Positions 3,685-62,430 of a DNA stretch of 64,000 nt are shown here, one piece after another; the stretch's first letter is position 1; each line of letters opens with the position of its first letter. A program made the position numbers and the translations under genes. Source of the stretch: an uncultured Clostridium sp. (GTDB lineage: Bacteria; Bacillota; Clostridia; TANB77; CAG-508); NCBI GenBank assembly GCA_900553945.1, contig USFR01000003.1, forward strand, positions 22,568 to 86,567, read 5' to 3'. The notes under the pieces were generated by a model. The model had not been told where the DNA came from. It did no database searches and saw only the letters and a list, made by a program, of their open reading frames with translations.

Positions 3685-3689
3685 TTTTA

Positions 3690-3816
3690 AAAGAACATTA
3701 TATTTTATTTTTGCATTCCTTGCTAAAAGATTTTACCGCCCACTAAACTTTGTTTAGCAGGCTAGGTAAAAACTTTCAAACTGCGCGTCATTGGAAAATA
3801 AAATATAATGTTCTTT
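3690..3816. repeat. Structured palindromic intergenic element of unknown function
   Basis: Perfect 20-bp inverted repeat AAGAACATTATATTTTATTT / AAATAAAATATAATGTTCTT encloses an 87-bp core. The core has a nested palindrome (CTTGCTAAA...TTTAGCAGG). Confidence 0.4.
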
Positions 3817-25643: not shown

Positions 25644-27530
25644 GTGTGCGACAGGCATGTCGTTTAGCTAATCGGTGAGAGCCCGTATTGGAGGTATATA
25701 TCGCCAACCAATTAGAGAAACACAAGCTATCCATCGTGAGGTGGAAGTGGAGGAAGTGTGTATCAAAATCATGGCTCGATGTACAAAAACTTGATATTAA
25801 GGCTATGCAAGAGGGGAAGACTGCACAACAAGTCAAAGCCCAAAAGATATACGTAACCTTGTATAGTAAATCAAGCGAGTAAATGAGGAAAGTTAAACGG
25901 CTTACCCTGTGAGGTCTTGTGAGCATAGAGTAGTTAGGAAACGACGAGGAGTACATAGAATGAAGTATGGTCGAAAAAGGTTTATCACAAGAAGTCAGCA
26001 GAGGTCATAGTAGGAAAAATTTTTTTTTCGAAGGACTGAACAATTTGTAGTGTTTTCACTACCGAAAAATTTAGTGATAGATAATAGTTAGAATGTGTTA
26101 ATGAGGAGAGTATGAGCGTATCTCAGAGGGTTACTCAAAATCCAATATTTTATCTATCTACGGAAAGAAAAAGAGGAAACAGATATGGAACTTTTAGAAG
26201 AAATTCTTAATCAAAACAATTTAAACAAGGCATACAAGAAAGTTGTAGCAAACAAAGGTGAAGCAGGAGCTGATGGGATAACAGTAGAAGAAGAATTTGA
26301 TTACTTAAAAGAAAACAAAGACAGAATAATAAACCAAATAAGAAAAAGAAAATATAAACCGCAACCTGTGAAAAGAGTCCAAATACCAAAAGAAAATGGT
26401 AAAATGAGAAATCTAGGAATACCAACAGTGACAGATAGAATAATACAACAAGCAATATCTCAAGTAATAAGCCCAATTTTTGAAAAGCAATTTAATGATA
26501 ATAGTTTTGGATTTAGACCTAATAGAAGCTGTGAACAAGCAGTAATTAGGGCATTGGAATATTTGAATGATGGATATGAATGGATAGTGGACATTGACTT
26601 AGAAAAATTTTTCGACACAGTAAATCAAGATAAATTAATAACAATAATAGGAAAGACAATAGCTGATGGAGATGTGGTGTCATTAATTAGAAAATATCTA
26701 AGTGCAGGAGTAATGGAAAAAGGAATAGTTAAAGCAACAACAGTAGGAACACCACAAGGAGGAAATCTAAGCCCATTATTAAGTAATATAATGTTAAATG
26801 AACTAGATAAAGAACTTGAGGCAAGAGGACTAAACTTTGTAAGATATGCTGATGACTGTATAATACTTGTTAAAAGTGAAAAAGCAGCAAACCGAGTTTT
26901 GGCATCAATAACAAAATTTATTGAAAAGAAACTAGGATTAAAAGTAAATGCAGAAAAGAGCAAGGTAACAAGACCAACACAAACGAAATACTTAGGATTT
27001 AGTTTTTGGAAAAGTCCAAAAGGACAATGGAAACCAAAACCACACCTAAAATCATATCAAAAACTAGTAAGAAAACTAAAACAGTTAACCGATAGAAGTT
27101 TGAGTATTAGCTTAGATAATAGAATTAAGAAAATAAATTATGTTGTTAGAGGTTGGGTAAATTACTTTAGAATAGCAAATATGAAAAATAAAATCACTGA
27201 AATTGATGAACACCTAAGGGTAAGAATAAGAGTTATAATTTGGAAACAATGGAAAAAGATACGTAAGAAATGTGAAAGCTTACAAAAATTAGGAGTCCCA
27301 TTTGAAATAGCATTTAATTGTGCAAATACAAGAAAAGGTTATTATCAAATATGCAAAACTAGATATATACAGTTTGCAATAAATAATGAAAGATTAAGAA
27401 AAAGAGGTCTAGTATTCCTACTAGACCAATATGAAAAAGTTCATATTTAATATAAATTGAACCGCCACTTGCGAGAACCGCTTGAGTGGTGGTGAGAGAG
27501 GGGAAAAACACACTAAGTGTTATCCTCTAC
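25644..27530 (+). mobile_element. Group II intron (bacterial class C-like)
   Basis: 5' GUGUGCG/GUGCG at 25644-25650, directly after a terminator U-tract. About 540 bp of structured RNA comes before the IEP ORF in domain IV. A domain V/VI-like hairpin region follows the ORF (27455-27530), ending ...TATCCTCTAC. Confidence 0.8.
26185..27450 (+). CDS. Group II intron reverse transcriptase/maturase (no endonuclease domain)
   Basis: 421 aa. RT motifs RNLGIPTVTDRIIQQA, FGFRPNRSCEQA, GTPQGGNLSPLLSN and YADD. Maturase X domain RGWVNYF. Ends without an HNH/En domain. Confidence 0.9.
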   Translation: MELLEEILNQNNLNKAYKKVVANKGEAGADGITVEEEFDYLKENKDRIINQIRKRKYKPQPVKRVQIPKENGKMRNLGIPTVTDRIIQQAISQVISPIFEKQFNDNSFGFRPNRSCEQAVIRALEYLNDGYEWIVDIDLEKFFDTVNQDKLITIIGKTIADGDVVSLIRKYLSAGVMEKGIVKATTVGTPQGGNLSPLLSNIMLNELDKELEARGLNFVRYADDCIILVKSEKAANRVLASITKFIEKKLGLKVNAEKSKVTRPTQTKYLGFSFWKSPKGQWKPKPHLKSYQKLVRKLKQLTDRSLSISLDNRIKKINYVVRGWVNYFRIANMKNKITEIDEHLRVRIRVIIWKQWKKIRKKCESLQKLGVPFEIAFNCANTRKGYYQICKTRYIQFAINNERLRKRGLVFLLDQYEKVHI

Positions 27531-32117: not shown

Positions 32118-33815
32118 ATGAATCAAAAGAAAAAATTTTTTATAAAATTATTATTATTATTTTTAGTATTGCTTTTTTCATTAACAACTGTTGGAAATGC
32201 TAATACAATAAAAGTTGAACAGTCAAGAACGGCTTCAGGTGGTGTTAATATTACGGTTTATTCTGATGTAAAAGTTCAAGAAATTAGAATGTATTTAAAA
32301 TCGTCTGGAAAATGGAATTTATTTTATATTAATACAGAATCTGGATATACAAATAAGAAATTTTTTGTTTCAAAAAATAAAATTTCAATGAGTGAAGATT
32401 CTACTATAAAGATTGTAGTAATCGACCAAAATGGGGATGAAACAACAAATATTGCATCGATAACGCCAAATACAATACCAAGTACAACACCAAGCACGAC
32501 GCCAAGCATAACGCCAAGTACGACGCCAAGCACGACGCCAAGTACAACGCCAAGTACAACACCAAGCACAATGCCAAGCACGACGCCAAGCACAACACAA
32601 AGTACGACGCCAAGCACAACACCAAGCACATCTCCAAGCCCAAGTACTAGTACAAAGCCTTCACAACCAGCTACTGTTAAATCAATAAAGTTAAATAAAA
32701 CATCAGCCAATATTGTTATTGGGGATACACTTCAACTTGTTAAAACAATTACACCTTCTAATGCTACTACTAAATTAACATGGAGTACAAATAATAATAA
32801 GGTAGCTACTGTTGATGGAAATGGTAAAGTTAAGGCAATTGCTAAAGGAACTGCAACAATAACTGTAAAAACAGCTAATGGAAAAAAAGCAACTTGTAAA
32901 GTTACTGTAATTGAAAAACCTGGTTATACAACAAAATTAAATGGTCATACTGTAAAATTACCAACAGGTGATGATAGGGTATATATTTTGGATACACAGG
33001 ATAGAGATGATAAGAATAACAGATATTCTACAAGTGATGCAATAATAATTGAAAGCAACGGAAAATTTGCAATGATTGATACAGGGCTTAAAAGAACATC
33101 AAAACGTGTTATGCAATATTTAAATGATTTAGGTGTTAAGGAACTTGAATTTGTTTTTATTACTCATGCACATATTGATCATGCAGGTGGCTTCCCAACT
33201 ATAGCTAATAGTAATATTAAAGTTAAGGGATTATATATTAAAGATATAAGTAAAAGTACAAGTAACAGAATGGCTGTTTATAACATGGCTATAGCTGCTG
33301 CTAAAAAGAATAACATAAAGATATATAATGTTTCTAATAGTAAATATCAAACTTTAAAATGTGGTGATTTTACTTTCAAATTGTATAATACACCAGATAG
33401 ATTAATAAAAGCTGGAAAAAATAATACTGAGAATGTTAATAGTGTTACTGCACTTACAAAAATACATGGCAAAAAACTTTATTTTGCAGCTGATATTGTA
33501 AATGATGGATATGTTAATTGCAATGCTGAAAATATTGCAGCGAAAGCAGTAGGAAAAATAGATTTTTATAAGGTAGCTCATCATTTGTATTCACCAAATA
33601 ATTCTGTAACTGCTATGAAGATTTTGAATCCATCATCTGCAGTTGCAACAACACAAAAAGGATATGATAAGAGTATAGCTGCGAGAGACAGAGTACTTAA
33701 TAATTCAAATGTTACTGATAAAACATTAAGATATACTGCAGATGGTACTGTTATTTTAACTATTGGTGTTGATGGAAACTTTTCATTTAATAAATTATCT
33801 CAAGATGGCATATAG
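32118..33815 (+). CDS. Secreted protein: signal peptide, (STTP)n Thr/Pro linker, Big_2 Ig-like domain, C-terminal MBL-fold (ComEC-type) hydrolase domain
   Basis: 565 aa. N-terminal signal peptide. Big_2 segment (KSIKLNKTSANIVIGDTLQL...ATITVKTANGKKATCKVTV). MBL motif FVFITHAHIDHAGG. Confidence 0.75.
   Translation: MNQKKKFFIKLLLLFLVLLFSLTTVGNANTIKVEQSRTASGGVNITVYSDVKVQEIRMYLKSSGKWNLFYINTESGYTNKKFFVSKNKISMSEDSTIKIVVIDQNGDETTNIASITPNTIPSTTPSTTPSITPSTTPSTTPSTTPSTTPSTMPSTTPSTTQSTTPSTTPSTSPSPSTSTKPSQPATVKSIKLNKTSANIVIGDTLQLVKTITPSNATTKLTWSTNNNKVATVDGNGKVKAIAKGTATITVKTANGKKATCKVTVIEKPGYTTKLNGHTVKLPTGDDRVYILDTQDRDDKNNRYSTSDAIIIESNGKFAMIDTGLKRTSKRVMQYLNDLGVKELEFVFITHAHIDHAGGFPTIANSNIKVKGLYIKDISKSTSNRMAVYNMAIAAAKKNNIKIYNVSNSKYQTLKCGDFTFKLYNTPDRLIKAGKNNTENVNSVTALTKIHGKKLYFAADIVNDGYVNCNAENIAAKAVGKIDFYKVAHHLYSPNNSVTAMKILNPSSAVATTQKGYDKSIAARDRVLNNSNVTDKTLRYTADGTVILTIGVDGNFSFNKLSQDGI
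32466..32645 (+). repeat. 12-bp tandem repeat (~14 units) encoding (S-T-T-P)n
   Basis: AGYACRACRCCA units repeated head-to-tail with point variants (ATA, ATG, CAA, TCT). Confidence 0.9.
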
Positions 33816-35235: not shown

Positions 35236-35465
35236 AAAAAATACATGGTAGGTGAGGCCAGTATAGGGATACGGGTTACTACCGCAAACTAGTGGAGACA
35301 CTACGCGCCGGTTAACAGAGAATGTCGATTCAAGGCATGCTTTAATGTGATTTCATTGCCCTATAACGCTGAAGCTTGTACGGTATATGAAATGTGGTTT
35401 AGGTTAATAATTATATTAATTTAAGTTCTTATTACTGTGCAAGCACGTAATAAGAACTTTTTTTG
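35236..35465 (+). promoter_or_regulatory. M-box (ykoK) Mg2+ riboswitch with terminator expression platform
   Basis: GGTAGGTGAGGC...GTATAGGGATACG...TACCGCAAA...GTTAACAGA...TATAACGCTGAAGCT conserved M-box blocks. Followed by terminator AAGTTCTTATTACGTG.../...CACGTAATAAGAACTT + TTTTTT. mgtE lies downstream. Confidence 0.8.
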
Positions 35466-35595: not shown

Positions 35596-36927
35596 ATGGT
35601 AGAAAAATTACAAGAATTATTAGAACAAAAGAAGTATGCGGAGATTCATAAAATGTTAGAAAGTTTGAATAGTGCTGATATCCCGAGTATTTTTGATGAA
35701 CTTGATGAAGAACAAATTGTGATTGTCTATCGTTTATTATCAAAGGATATGGCAGCTGATGTTTTTGTTGAACTTGACCCTGATATGCAAGAGAATTTAA
35801 TTAATGCTTTTTCAGATAAAGAATTAAAAAATGTGCTTGATGATATTTTTATGGATGATACAGTTGATTTGGTTGAAGAGATGCCTGCTAGTGTTGTTAA
35901 GCGTATTTTGAGGGCACAAAATTCTGAAGATAGAAAGATGATTAATGAATTGTTGAGATATCCAGAAGATAGTGCTGGAAGTATTATGACAACTGAGTTT
36001 GTGGATTTAAAAGAAAATATGACAGTTGAAAAGGCTATTGAGAAAATTAGAAAAGTTGGTGATGATGTTGAAAGTATATATGTTTGTTATGTGCTTACAT
36101 TGACAAGACAACTTATTGGAATTGTTTCTTTAAAAGATTTAATTATGGCAGATAAGGTTACTTTAGTAAAGGATATTATGGATAAGAACTTTATTAAGGT
36201 ATCTACTTTGGAGGAACAAGAAGAGGTTGCAAAGAAATTTGATAAGTATGATGAAATTTCTTTACCAGTTGTTGATAATGAAGATCGTTTAGTTGGAATT
36301 GTAACAGTTGATGATGCTATGGATGTTATGCATGAGGAAATGGATGAAGATTTTGAGAAGATGGCTGCTATTACTCCAAGTGAAGATACGTATTTTAAGA
36401 CGAGTGTTTTCAAGCATGCTCGTAATAGAATTTTCTGGTTATTAGTTTTAATGATTTCTGCAACAGTTACAGGAGGAGTTATTACTAAATATGAAGATGC
36501 TTTTGCTGCTATTCCGTTGCTTGTTGCATTTTTACCTATGGTTATGGGGACTGGTGGAAACTGTGGATCACAAAGTTCTACATTAATTATAAGAGGTTTA
36601 GCAAATGATGAAATTAAATTAAAAGATTTCTTTAAAGCTTGGTGGAAAGAAGTTAGAGTTGCATTTTTAGTTGGAATTGCATTATTTATTGCAAATTACA
36701 TTAGAATTATGATACAATACAATAACTTACATTTAGCAATCATTGTTGGTTGCACATTAATGGGAACAGTTACTATTGCGAAATCTTTAGGTTGTATATT
36801 ACCTATGATAGCTAAGAAGTTAAAAATGGATCCAGCAATAATGGCTGCACCATTAATAAGTACAATATTAGATACTTGTTCAGTATTTATTTATTTTAAT
36901 GTTGCTACTTTGGTAATGGGGTTGTAG
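35596..36927 (+). CDS. mgtE: Magnesium transporter MgtE
   Basis: 443 aa. MgtE N-domain, CBS pair, C-terminal MgtE TM domain (PMVMGTGGNCGSQS). Confidence 0.9.
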   Translation: MVEKLQELLEQKKYAEIHKMLESLNSADIPSIFDELDEEQIVIVYRLLSKDMAADVFVELDPDMQENLINAFSDKELKNVLDDIFMDDTVDLVEEMPASVVKRILRAQNSEDRKMINELLRYPEDSAGSIMTTEFVDLKENMTVEKAIEKIRKVGDDVESIYVCYVLTLTRQLIGIVSLKDLIMADKVTLVKDIMDKNFIKVSTLEEQEEVAKKFDKYDEISLPVVDNEDRLVGIVTVDDAMDVMHEEMDEDFEKMAAITPSEDTYFKTSVFKHARNRIFWLLVLMISATVTGGVITKYEDAFAAIPLLVAFLPMVMGTGGNCGSQSSTLIIRGLANDEIKLKDFFKAWWKEVRVAFLVGIALFIANYIRIMIQYNNLHLAIIVGCTLMGTVTIAKSLGCILPMIAKKLKMDPAIMAAPLISTILDTCSVFIYFNVATLVMGL

Positions 36928-42367: not shown

Positions 42368-42703
42368 ATGACAGGGTTTCTTGTGATTGTTTTTATGCTT
42401 CTTCTTATAATTGTTATGTTGATTGCATTAGCCGTATGTCAAATAAAAATGGCTGGAATGAATGTAAAAGACTTTTGGACTTTTATTAAAGCTAATGAGA
42501 CTTTAAACAAATTATATGCGTTTTCGAAGAAGTATGAGAAGTTAACAACAAATGAACAATTAGTTTTTTTGCGTGAGGCTGAGAGAGTGTTTGATGCTTT
42601 TGATAAGGTTCCTAATGTGTTATGGGAAGAGGATTATCAGAAGTATATGGAGGTCTTGTCGAAGTATAAGGATATTAGATTGGTTAGATGGGAGAAAAGT
42701 TAA
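42368..42703 (+). CDS. Hypothetical small membrane protein
   Basis: 111 aa. N-terminal TM helix. RBS AAAGGAG. Confidence 0.5.
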   Translation: MTGFLVIVFMLLLIIVMLIALAVCQIKMAGMNVKDFWTFIKANETLNKLYAFSKKYEKLTTNEQLVFLREAERVFDAFDKVPNVLWEEDYQKYMEVLSKYKDIRLVRWEKS

Positions 42704-42725
42704 TCTTTTCTCTTTTTTGTTGTAT

Positions 42726-42899
42726 AGAAAGAAGATGATATATAAAATTTTTGAATTACCGCGCAGGGAACAAACGAACGAAGTGAGTTCGTTTGAAGCA
42801 TTCTACCCGTTTTGAAAATAGAAATAGTAAATTTTTATTTTCAAATTCCGAAGAATGCGACAGCAAGGTGTGAAAAAATTTTATATATCATCTTCTTTA
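42726..42899. mobile_element. MITE-like element, copy A (~174 bp, 26-bp terminal inverted repeats)
   Basis: TIRs AAAGAAGATGATATATAAAATTTTT / AAAAATTTTATATATCATCTTCTTT. Internal ~135 bp is ~85-90% identical to the reverse complement of copy B (52609-52783). Internal palindrome TTGAAAATA...TATTTTCAA. Confidence 0.6.
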
Positions 42900-47088: not shown

Positions 47089-47127
47089 ATGTACAATTAG
47101 ATAAAAACTTTATTTTATATATAGGAA

Positions 47128-47212
47128 ATCTTTTTGAAATTTCTATTATATAAAATAACAATACACAGAAATTTGCTTTGCAAATTTCACACGCGAACAA
47201 AGAGGTTGAGCA
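47128..47212 (+). repeat. Intergenic repeat family copy 2
   Basis: GAAATTTCTATTATATAAAATAACAATACACAGAAATTTGCTTTGCAAATTTCACACGCGAACAAAGAGG. Contains the perfect 19-bp palindrome AAATTTGC-TTT-GCAAATTT. Extended similarity (~130 bp) to copy 4. Confidence 0.6.
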
Positions 47213-47295
47213 TAAAGAAGTTAAAATAAGTGCAAATGTTCTAAATAGTCCGCTTTGTTCTAAAAGCGGTTGTCGTAGAAAGGAATGAAGTAATA

Positions 47296-52608: not shown

Positions 52609-52783
52609 GTTAAAGAAAAAATATATTAAATTTTTTCACACCTTGCTGTCGCATTCTTCGATTTTTGAAAATAAAAATATTAAATTTTTATTTTCAATCG
52701 GGTAGAATGCTTCAATCGAACTCGCTTTGCTCGTTTGGTCCCTGCGCGGTGATTCAAAAATTTAATATATTTTTTTCTTTAAA
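52609..52783. mobile_element. MITE-like element, copy B (inverted relative to copy A)
   Basis: TIRs TTAAAGAAAAAATATATTAAATTTTT / AAAAATTTAATATATTTTTTTCTTTAA. Core is the reverse complement of copy A. Confidence 0.6.
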
Positions 52784-53224: not shown

Positions 53225-53290
53225 AATTTTGTTCGTTTATGAAATTTGTAAGGCAGATTTCTGTGTATTGTAGAAATTTTAGAGAATATA
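53225..53290 (-). repeat. Intergenic repeat family copy 3
   Basis: Reverse complement reads TTTCTACAATACACAGAAATCTGCCTTACAAATTTCATAAACGAACAAAATTG. Confidence 0.55.
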
Positions 53291-59766: not shown

Positions 59767-62180
59767 ATTTCTCTATTTAAATTTGCATTTGTGTATTGAG
59801 TTCCTTTTAATTTTTCACCTTTATTAACTGTGTCGATTATTTGTTGTATTTCGGAAATATTTTCTTCTAAAATATCTATTCGAAGAGAAGTAATATTTTC
59901 GAAGTCATTTGGTGCAATTGATGTAATTTTTGAATTGTATAATGTAGATACAGTTTGTATGTTGTCTGGTTCGATTGGAAATTTTAAATTTAATCTATCT
60001 TTTAAATAATAGTTATTATTTGTGTTGCATTTCATTGTACATTCTGGATAACATCTATTGCTTTTTCCAAGTGGACAATAATTCATATTCATTAATGGTG
60101 TTCTACCATAGCAAATTAATTCTTGATTTGATATTTCTAAAAATTTATCTATGGTGCTTTTATCTAGTTCTGGTGAAATTGTGAATTTATTTATTCCTAG
60201 TTTATCAAGTTCAGCTAATGTGCGTTGATTAAAAATGTTAAATGTGTAGTTTGCAATAAATTCAAAGTTTTCTGTATTAAAATCTTTTAAAAACTTGAAG
60301 TTTGATATATTTGAAAGAATAAATCCTTTGATATTGTATGTATTGATAGTTTTTTCTATATTGGCTGCAAGTAGATTTCTATAGTTAGATTTTATTATAG
60401 TAGGTAAATAAATGTATAAATTAAATTTATTACTTAGGTCATTTATTATTTGTTCATATTTCTTTTGAGTAAAGAACTTTAATGGAATATATATGTTATT
60501 TATTCCTTGTAAGCTTGTATAATCTTCGTTTAAATTGATTTTATTTAATAGTAAAGATATTGATTTTTCTTGATTTGTTTTATTATAGTAGTTCATATTT
60601 TCAAATTCTTTATTTGTTGCTCTTTGAATTTTACTTTTTGCAAAGTCTTCAACTAGTGTAAGGGCAGTTCTTCTTAATTCATTTAATGCTTTTATGTTTG
60701 GTAAGAATGTGTTTTCGTCTAATTTTATTTTAATATTTTTAAAGTAATAAGGTGTGTTATTTGTTTTTGTAATTTGTGATATTACTTTTTCTTTTTCTAG
60801 AGGATGTTTTATTGAGTCTGTTGGAATTGCATCAATTTCACAATAGATATCTAACTTCCTATATATTTCTAAATCACAAGCAGAACTTACATGTATTGAA
60901 ATTGGTGAGTTTTTTACAATTTTTATTTCACAGTTAAGAGGTATTTTTTTAGTTTGAATGTCATTTTCAAAAGAAGAGTAGGCAAGAGTGGTTAATTGCT
61001 TTGATGACATTTTATATATTTTATCTCCAACTTTAATATTTCCTTTCATTCTGCCAATAGTTACGAAATCGTTTGGATTAGCTGTTTTTATATTGGTATT
61101 TTTAGTCATTAATTCAGAGATTGTGTATGTTCCGGTTTCTTTTTCTAGAGCGATTGTATCTCCGATTTCGATTGGTTCGTTTAGGTTAAGTGTGATTAAA
61201 CCTTTTGATGGATTATATTTTGCAACATGCCCTAAAAATAATCCCATATTATTAGGCTTTTCAGAGAATATTAAATTCTTATTTGCGTGAGGATTTAGAT
61301 GTCCTGATGAGAAGTTGCCTCTGTTAAATACTTGCATTAAATTTTTTCTGTCTTGTTCATTTATTTTATATGGTTTATTTGATTTAGCTAAATTGATATA
61401 TTTTCTATAAATTCTTGTAACTGTTGCAACGTATTCAGGTGATTTCATTCTTCCTTCAATTTTTAGCGATTTTACGCCACAGTTTATTAGTCTTGGTAGG
61501 TAGTCTAGTGAGCATAAATCCCTTGGACTTAATAAGTAGCCTTTATCTAAAGTTGTTTTTTCATTTTCTATAAGTTCATATGGAAGTCTACAACTCTGCG
61601 CACATTTTCCACGGTTTCCTGAACGTCCACCAATCATACTAGAAAATAAACATTGACCAGAATATGAAATGCAAAGAGCACCATGAATAAAACATTCTAT
61701 TTCAATGTTTGAATTTTCACAAATATATTCAATTTCTTCAATTGATAATTCACGGGATAGAACAACTCTTGAAAAACCAAGTTCTTGTAATTCTAAAACT
61801 CCTTGAAGATTATGTACAGACATTTGTGTGCTAGCATGAATAGGTAGGTCTGGAAAGTTTTTGATAAGCATTTTGGCTAGACCTAAATCTTGAACTATTA
61901 TTGCATCTATGCCAGATTCATATGCTTTTTTCGCAACATTAAATGCTGATTCTAGTTCATTATCTTTTATTAATATATTTAGTGTTAAATTTGTTTTAAC
62001 ACCTCTAATTTTACAATATTCGATAGCTTTTGCGAGTTCATCATCATCAAAATTGTTTGCATATGCACGAGCACTAAATAAATTTGCTCCAAAATATATG
62101 CAGTTTGCTCCGTTTTGTACTGCAGCTTTAAGACATTCAAAATCACCAGCTGGTGACAAAAGTTCTATTTGTGATTCCAT
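59763..62180 (-). CDS. U32 family peptidase (collagenase-like), long form
   Basis: 805 aa. N-terminal U32 TIM-barrel signature (LLSPAGD...GADAIIVQD...E.F.HGALC.SYSGQC). Long C-terminal extension. Confidence 0.85.
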   Translation of the reverse strand: MESQIELLSPAGDFECLKAAVQNGANCIYFGANLFSARAYANNFDDDELAKAIEYCKIRGVKTNLTLNILIKDNELESAFNVAKKAYESGIDAIIVQDLGLAKMLIKNFPDLPIHASTQMSVHNLQGVLELQELGFSRVVLSRELSIEEIEYICENSNIEIECFIHGALCISYSGQCLFSSMIGGRSGNRGKCAQSCRLPYELIENEKTTLDKGYLLSPRDLCSLDYLPRLINCGVKSLKIEGRMKSPEYVATVTRIYRKYINLAKSNKPYKINEQDRKNLMQVFNRGNFSSGHLNPHANKNLIFSEKPNNMGLFLGHVAKYNPSKGLITLNLNEPIEIGDTIALEKETGTYTISELMTKNTNIKTANPNDFVTIGRMKGNIKVGDKIYKMSSKQLTTLAYSSFENDIQTKKIPLNCEIKIVKNSPISIHVSSACDLEIYRKLDIYCEIDAIPTDSIKHPLEKEKVISQITKTNNTPYYFKNIKIKLDENTFLPNIKALNELRRTALTLVEDFAKSKIQRATNKEFENMNYYNKTNQEKSISLLLNKINLNEDYTSLQGINNIYIPLKFFTQKKYEQIINDLSNKFNLYIYLPTIIKSNYRNLLAANIEKTINTYNIKGFILSNISNFKFLKDFNTENFEFIANYTFNIFNQRTLAELDKLGINKFTISPELDKSTIDKFLEISNQELICYGRTPLMNMNYCPLGKSNRCYPECTMKCNTNNNYYLKDRLNLKFPIEPDNIQTVSTLYNSKITSIAPNDFENITSLRIDILEENISEIQQIIDTVNKGEKLKGTQYTNANLNREI

Positions 62181-62244
62181 ATTTTTTCCTCTTTCATTTT
62201 TATAAGAACAAAAACGGACTATTTATAACGTTTGAACTGATTAT

Positions 62245-62330
62245 AACATTTTTAAGTTCGCGTCTTTGTTCGTGCGCGAAATTTGCAAAGCAAATTTCTG
62301 TGCATTGTTAATTTTATATAATAGGAAGTT
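62245..62330 (-). repeat. Intergenic repeat family copy 4
   Basis: Reverse complement reads TTCCTATTATATAAAATTAACAATGCACAGAAATTTGCTTTGCAAATTTCGCGCACGAACAAAGACGCGAAC. Confidence 0.6.
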
Positions 62331-62430
62331 CGTAGAACTTTCCAATGATATAAAATAATTATATCATAAAAAAACTTTTAGTATAGAGGAGAAACTTGAA
62401 AAATGTAACAAAAATAACATATTTATTTTA

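Follow-up and report, generated by a model that had tools for sequence, protein, structure and literature searches.

Hairpin-forming MITE-like repeats are well documented, and PMC3184786 describes bcr1 of the Bacillus cereus group as a multi-copy intergenic repeat of about 155 bp, with a cruciform-like fold kept by compensatory changes, flanking 5-bp direct repeats and a distribution that is not conserved between relatives. Correia/NEMIS (Neisseria), ERIC/IRU, RUP, BOX and SPRITE repeats are reviewed in the same text and in PMC10969869. Of these, bcr1 is the nearest described counterpart of the family reported here, fam1, which likewise belongs to a Firmicute, is intergenic and multi-copy, has a similar size and possesses a compensated fold. 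The 5-bp direct repeats of bcr1 have no equivalent at fam1, and the flipping of the fam1 core in place is a feature that the passages of PMC3184786 consulted do not describe for bcr1. The likeness seen between the two is one of description, not of sequence.

The Correia/NEMIS, ERIC/IRU, RUP, BOX and SPRITE repeats are small and non-autonomous, bear terminal inverted repeats and are mostly intergenic, and fam1 resembles repeats of the Correia type in all of these respects. Correia and RUP elements have defined target duplications and IS-like ends, whereas fam1 possesses no duplication and no known parent IS. Read-through RNA folds into long hairpins at Correia-type repeats, which can influence promoters, termination or the processing of RNA; they are simple hairpins, in contrast to the conserved three-way junction of the fam1 core. 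REPIN/REP sequences are hairpin repeats that are vertically inherited at stable loci without duplication and whose RAYT transposase is encoded elsewhere. Fam1 is similar to them in forming hairpins, in occupying stable loci and in lacking a duplication, but REPs are GC-rich palindromes of 20-40 bp, mostly proteobacterial, while fam1 is larger and its arms are AT-rich. Finally, in the flg and cwpV switches of Clostridioides difficile and in gut invertons, inverted repeats of about 21-30 bp flank an invertible segment of 150-300 bp; each such switch regulates from a single locus and is inverted frequently by a recombinase. Inverted repeats also flank a segment found in either orientation in fam1; this family, however, is multi-copy, its orientation is fixed within the one species examined for it, that of the DNA analysed here, and its flips are seen only between lineages.

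The DNA analysed here, referred to as the window, is a stretch of 64,000 nucleotides from an uncultured Clostridium sp., with a G+C content of 29% and with 42 of its 44 ORFs of at least 150 aa on the + strand. Besides the repeats discussed below, it contains a group II intron (25730-27450), with Rfam domains D1-D4 at 25730-26036 and an RT/maturase ORF (RVT_1 plus GIIM) at 26185-27450, and an M-box (magnesium) riboswitch at 35237-35392 (96 bits) upstream of an ORF at 35596-36927. At least 14 tandem 12-nt units resembling AACGCCAAGTAC occupy 32438-32677; they lie inside a 565-aa ORF (32118-33815), whose protein is thus repetitive.

Two copies of fam1 in the window

Copy A is an element of 171 bp at 42728..42898 on the + strand, with its core forward, and is matched by the covariance model of the family at 182.9 bits (E = 9e-36). 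Its left arm (42728..42752, +), AAAGAAGATGATATATAAAATTTTT, is a perfect 25-bp complement of its right arm (42874..42898, +), and between them lies a core predicted to form a three-way junction (42753..42873, +). Copy B, at 52612..52780 on the - strand, with its core reverse relative to the + strand, scores 189.6 bits and is 169 bp long, or 173 bp if an extra TT/AA pair is counted. Its 25-nt arms are located on the polC side (52612..52636) and the DUF1294 side (52756..52780) of the core (52637..52755, -) and are paired save for one unpaired T.

A first-pass annotation of the window had proposed two non-coding miniature elements at these places, and both exist, with boundaries within about 2-3 nt of those proposed. 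The terminal inverted repeats claimed for them are reproduced on exact alignment, at a length of 25 bp and not the 26 bp first given. Compared as reverse complements, the copies share 85% identity over the element alone and 88% mean column identity when the flanks are included in the alignment, in agreement with the 85-90% proposed and well over the limit of 70% that had been set for that proposal. A 20-mer of the core occurs exactly twice in the window and not once in 100 shuffles, and the covariance model detects no third copy there. The internal palindromes are real as well, since each copy folds at -55 to -67 kcal/mol, with z = -8.3 to -9.5 relative to shuffles. ORFs overlapping fam1 copies are chance ORFs only, and the description of the elements as non-coding, with terminal inverted repeats, is supported. 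Coding of a peptide in the core was considered and rejected, as there is no ribosome-binding site and the frames run out into the variable flanks.

Copies A and B probably belong to a lineage-restricted, non-autonomous, MITE-like family of foldback repeats, comparable to the bcr1, Correia and ERIC repeats. Such a family would have been spread by some enzyme that leaves no target-site duplication, and the perfect, copy-specific pairing of the arms would be kept by recombination or template switching between the arms rather than by selection for an RNA. The host may be affected incidentally, through a large hairpin formed in transcripts that read through the element and through a site prone to local rearrangement.

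Fold, covariation and decay of the family

Elements of fam1 are non-coding and 135-200 bp in size. The arms are AT-rich, 22-25 bp long and of consensus AAAGRAAAATACATATWAAATTTTT, with a sequence that varies from copy to copy; their complementarity is 88% within a copy compared with 79% between copies, and none of 2000 permutations reached 88%. The core is GC-richer than the arms and is predicted to fold as a three-way junction made up of P2, P3 and P4. P2 consists of CACC/GGTG plus a GC pair (42757-60 with 42867-70 in copy A), and P3 is a hairpin with tandem G.A pairs (42772-42794 in copy A, where these pairs appear in the alifold model). P4 is GCATTCT/AGAATGC (42798-42804 with 42852-42858 in copy A) and carries a variable extension, which may be absent or about 45 nt or about 75 nt long and which in copy A is an AT-rich hairpin at about 42810-42846.

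Both sides have changed in 18 of the 37 pairs, where shuffles gave 4.2 +/- 1.5 and slid controls 2-7, and pairing is maintained in 98.8% of the cells of the fam1 alignment. In one diverged copy (L017:1150-1288) the P2 and P4 stems are both compensated, CACC/GGTG having changed to CACT/AGTG and GCATTCT/AGAATGC to GCAATCT/AGATTGC. The extension of P3 found in the L001/L013 subtype retains the tandem G.A pairs and the hairpin design. Departures on the forward strand are G.T in 11 columns and A.C in 3. Nothing else points to one strand being favoured, and the predicted folds of both are equally stable (energies differing by 0.3 +/- 5.2 kcal/mol on average, n = 27, p = 0.77).

A second foldback repeat of about 130 bp, fam2, is located at 3686-3816 of the window and also at L017:1013-1140, L015:3313-3441 and other sites. 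It has 22-bp arms resembling those of fam1, folds at -49.5 kcal/mol (z = -9.1), shares the sub-terminal motifs GCGCAG and AGCAAGG with fam1 and lies within 100 bp of a fam1 copy at 7-8 loci.

The strong covariation in P2, P3 and P4 lends weight to a different reading, according to which the core acts as a functional structured RNA, whether a small RNA present in many copies or one that binds a protein. The copies would on this reading be RNA genes, and the long AT-rich outer stem would be the place where an enzyme such as RNase III processes the transcript. The retained design of the P3 extension, the excess of G.U-type over A.C departures on the forward strand and the GCGCAG and AGCAAGG motifs common to the second family point the same way. 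So does core identity between orthologues at the first two loci, which amounts to 96-99% compared with 74-95% at fourfold sites.

Conservation of the core is nevertheless uneven. Fourfold-degenerate sites or flanks vary more than the core at loci A, B, D and I, whereas at locus G and in some strains at A it is the core that is less conserved than the flanks. Purifying selection on the core was therefore not retained as an explanation, the first two loci being suggestive and the wider set of orthologues and the within-species data mixed. Excess variation of the core over its flanks could stem from chimeric short-read assembly through the shared core. At one locus assembled from two samples (L019 and L071), 500 bp of flank and arm sequence show no mismatch, but 9 of the 118 core positions differ; the difference represents either a hotspot, with conversion from other copies, or a chimera of short-read assembly.

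Individual copies also decay. Within the window species, copy A shows point changes and, in L041, a 57-bp deletion in P4, while in L037 one arm of P4 has been converted to the exact complement of the other (quasipalindrome correction). Copy B is invariant within the species save for a change in the length of a T run and one 112-bp deletion. Copies have lost parts through deletions between short direct repeats. Elsewhere in the family, three lineages have three different P4 modules at one orthologous locus, and a synteny break between CAKPEG and USQZ falls at the edge of an element that is itself chimeric (L024/L028).

Disruptive mutations and deletions of this kind within a species, together with cores that in some pairs are more diverged than their flanks, speak against RNA genes. 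The equal folding of the two strands does so too, as do the lack of orientation bias and the ability of the core to flip in place without loss of the locus. No convincing conserved promoter was found, promoter-like sites being no more frequent than in shuffled sequence, and the family is confined to one narrow clade. Rfam gave no match to fam1 at the gathering threshold in a scan of the window, and for copy A at up to E = 10 its sole match was to U11 (E = 6.8), a chance match; at a permissive threshold, two other repeat families gave nothing. Part of the apparent conservation must also be discounted, since all copies were found via an exact 20-22-mer of the right-hand core, a seed that in part dictates how invariant this block looks. 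On this mixed evidence RNA genes are judged unlikely, and a selfish foldback repeat is the better fit because of the equal strand folds, the lack of orientation bias and the partial deletions.

A single-stranded structure under selection would likewise be compatible with the strong covariation, the excess of G.T and the conservation of the core at loci A, B, D and I. The core with its GCGCAG and AGCAAGG motifs would in that case be a functional single-stranded nucleic acid, kept by the host at fixed loci and flipping as part of its function; RNase III might free it from the AT-rich stem as an RNA, or it might act as a DNA hairpin that a recombinase recognises. We regard this as quite improbable.

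Distribution, insertion and mobility

The exact 20-mer of the core is present at 31 loci in a species-representative genome collection: 13 sites in the MAG CAKPEG01 (uncultured Clostridia, Hadza gut), 16 in USQZ01 (uncultured Clostridium sp. UMGS1994) and one in each of two further gut MAGs. A match in Paceibacterota was set aside as chance and not a copy of the family. From the 20-mer and the covariance model together, two related gut MAGs contain at least 14 and at least 18 copies, numbers that are lower bounds owing to the exact-match seed. The model, built on 27 full copies and searched against about 280 kb, adds just a few diverged or partial copies to the 20-mer set. A scan of metagenomes yielded 71 stretches with the core motif, and all named sources among them are human-gut assemblies. 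These counts confirm a dispersed, multi-copy family in relatives and gut metagenomes. Searches with two core patterns gave no matches in viral contigs, BLAST gave no fam1 match in phage and plasmid records, and a full-text search of the literature found no occurrence of the core sequence. Judged from the collections searched, fam1 is confined to one narrow clade of uncultured human-gut bacteria.

The 28 copies whose neighbouring genes were inspected all lie in intergenic DNA, 19 between tandem, 5 between convergent and 1 between divergent genes, with one neighbour uncalled in the remaining 3. Relative to the flanking genes, 8 copies have the same orientation and 11 the opposite, and there is no bias. 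Many copies sit at the ends of contigs.

Unoccupied sites in relatives demonstrate an insertional origin of both window copies with respect to more distant lineages. Locus B is empty in the P0038 lineage, in which the gap between polC and the DUF1294 gene is 28 bp long and holds no element; in other lineages the same gap holds other inserts. Locus A is empty in L033 and L039, whose junction can be aligned with the sequences on either side of the CAKPEG copy L026. A 230-aa ORF without a Pfam match occurs at the site of copy A in these two contigs (L033:2223-2915 and L039:2222-2914), and PyrH is identical.

One of the other inserts between polC and DUF1294 is fam4, a structured repeat of about 140 nt that fills the gap in relatives at L006:4975-5100, L053:930-1480 and L054:450-600, the second of these being a tandem array of four units. 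It contains CCTGATGACGGAG and has no match to a hammerhead or to any other Rfam family. A hammerhead had been considered for fam4 on account of CCTGATGA, and was rejected for want of Rfam support and because the expected GAAA is misplaced.

No target-site duplication was found at any boundary offset among 25 copies, no direct repeat of at least 3 bp being common to more than 3 of the 25 at any offset, and none was found in comparisons of empty with filled sites at loci A and B. The same 25 copies show no conserved flanking motif on the left or on the right. A cognate transposase, which the first-pass annotation had suggested looking for, did not emerge: about 240 kb around 31 motif matches, of which 30 are family copies, contain no transposase and no repeated ORF, in a search that covered 31 loci of up to 8 kb each. 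No longer element sharing the ends was detected, as every core match inside a contig is element-sized, and a search for an autonomous partner via unpaired arms and repeated ORFs gave none.

Fam1 thus agrees with MITEs in being small (less than about 500 bp), in having no transposase gene, in its terminal inverted repeats, in its dispersed copies and in its presence/absence polymorphism, and departs from them in the target-site duplication. The earlier label of MITE-like elements stands as regards small size, repeats, dispersal and insertion; classical MITEs they are not. Since the duplication is lacking and no parent IS is known, fam1 is classed as a new MITE-like repeat family of the foldback type.

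The lack of a duplication and of a transposase adjoining any copy would also be consistent with movement as single-stranded DNA, the elements being palindromic derivatives of IS200/IS605 or REPIN-like sequences that a single-copy HUH/Y1 transposase, encoded elsewhere in the genome, would move in trans. The explanation favoured above is here narrowed to one class of enzyme, and the heavily structured ends and core and the tolerance of wobble pairs on one strand agree with this. Such elements normally have no long terminal inverted repeats, however, and would be expected to insert 3' of a fixed target of 4-5 nt, whereas the left flanks of fam1 have no conserved motif; fam1 also shows no orientation bias with respect to gene, and hence replication, direction. 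The involvement of an HUH/Y1 enzyme is considered very unlikely.

Orientation of the core and the pyrH-polC segment

The 74 full copies, when grouped by their flanks, form about 14 orthologous sets, and both orientations of the core are present, with flanks unchanged, in 4 of these, including both window loci. At both of the latter, orthologues from CAKPEG, USQZ and CAMCHB have the same flanks and the same boundary with the core opposite. The flipped cores at locus B are those of L006, L010 and L018, which are 98-99% identical to the core of copy B, and of the more diverged L097 (92.6%), and the boundary of the arm on the DUF1294 side is unchanged in the flipped-core relatives. Cores carry locus-specific signatures, being 96-99% identical between orthologues compared with 85-87% between the two window copies, and the arms of flipped orthologues are 80-87% identical. 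Between L072 and L113, the core-proximal arm variant TTAG travels with the core, which places the crossover in the distal arm. Both orientations are found in more than one independent assembly and follow lineage.

The assembled sequences show that lineages differ by an inversion of the core in place, the crossover of which falls within the arms. The flips would represent rare recombination or template switching between the arms of an element, a process that would explain why arms are complementary to each other yet diverged from those of their orthologues. Recombination between copies A and B was rejected as the cause of the flips, because it would leave the orientation of each element relative to its outer flank as it was, and gene order is unchanged.

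Inverted repeats of 25 bp around about 120 bp, with a core whose orientation varies by lineage at 4 of about 14 loci, also resemble an inverton, in which a site-specific recombinase acting on the arms would flip the core and change the expression of a downstream gene. In the assemblies of the window species, however, orientation is fixed, being that of the window in 8 of 8 at locus A and in 12 of 12 at locus B, and the flips track the divergence of lineages and look like rare recombination. Many copies, moreover, lie between convergent genes or just past stop codons, where there is nothing to switch; no conserved promoter is present, and the arms vary between copies. A regulatory switch of this kind is highly improbable, and rare exchange between the arms of a foldback repeat remains the preferred account of the flips.

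The genes between copies A and B are pyrH (AA_kinase), frr (RRF), uppS (prenyltransferase), cdsA (CTP_transf_1), rseP (peptidase M50) and polC, as had been listed, with an additional small bPH_2 ORF just before polC that was absent from that list. The polC product is unusually long (1578 aa). The first-pass annotation had noted that the two copies bracket this essential cluster and had suggested them as potential substrates for the inversion of the 9.7-kb segment. Three contigs that span both copies have an exact spacing of 9823 bp from pyrH to DUF1294 in the window orientation, and none of them is inverted; the recombination that is seen lies within the elements. Around each element, the 20 assemblies of the window species that cover one locus run collinear with the window. 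Because nearly all genes are on one strand, polC and its neighbours would run counter to the general gene direction if the segment were inverted. The best explanation is that copies A and B do not act together on the pyrH-polC segment, and their bracketing of the essential cluster looks coincidental, as the family is scattered through many unrelated intergenic regions.

The terminator or insulator role that the first-pass annotation gave the two copies is at most putative. A canonical intrinsic terminator of the upstream 111-aa gene was identified at 42690..42714 (+), so termination of this gene does not depend on copy A. The scan that identified it flagged neither element; these are branched hairpins of 170 nt with A/T-rich arms, unlike a short GC-rich stem followed by a T run.

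Another repeat of the window, fam3, is located at 47111-47265 (+), 62166-62358 (-) and 53228-53271 and also occurs in related loci. It is composed of an AT-rich palindrome, TATATAGGAAAT...ATTTCTATTATATA, followed by a hairpin, GAAATTTGC-TTT-GCAAATTTC, and lies directly 5' of a bPH_2 gene and of a peptidase U32 gene. It has no Rfam match and could be a shared promoter/operator or leader.

Fam1 represents an undescribed family of small foldback repeats in a common but uncultured Firmicute lineage of the human gut. They break short-read assemblies, and contigs often end at a copy. In annotation, without expression data, they are not to be named terminators, RNA genes or markers of invertible operons. 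The flipping in place and the shared junction motifs are the more unusual features of fam1, and the family provides a clean natural case in which short inverted repeats flip the intervening segment in place while the arms stay complementary to each other.
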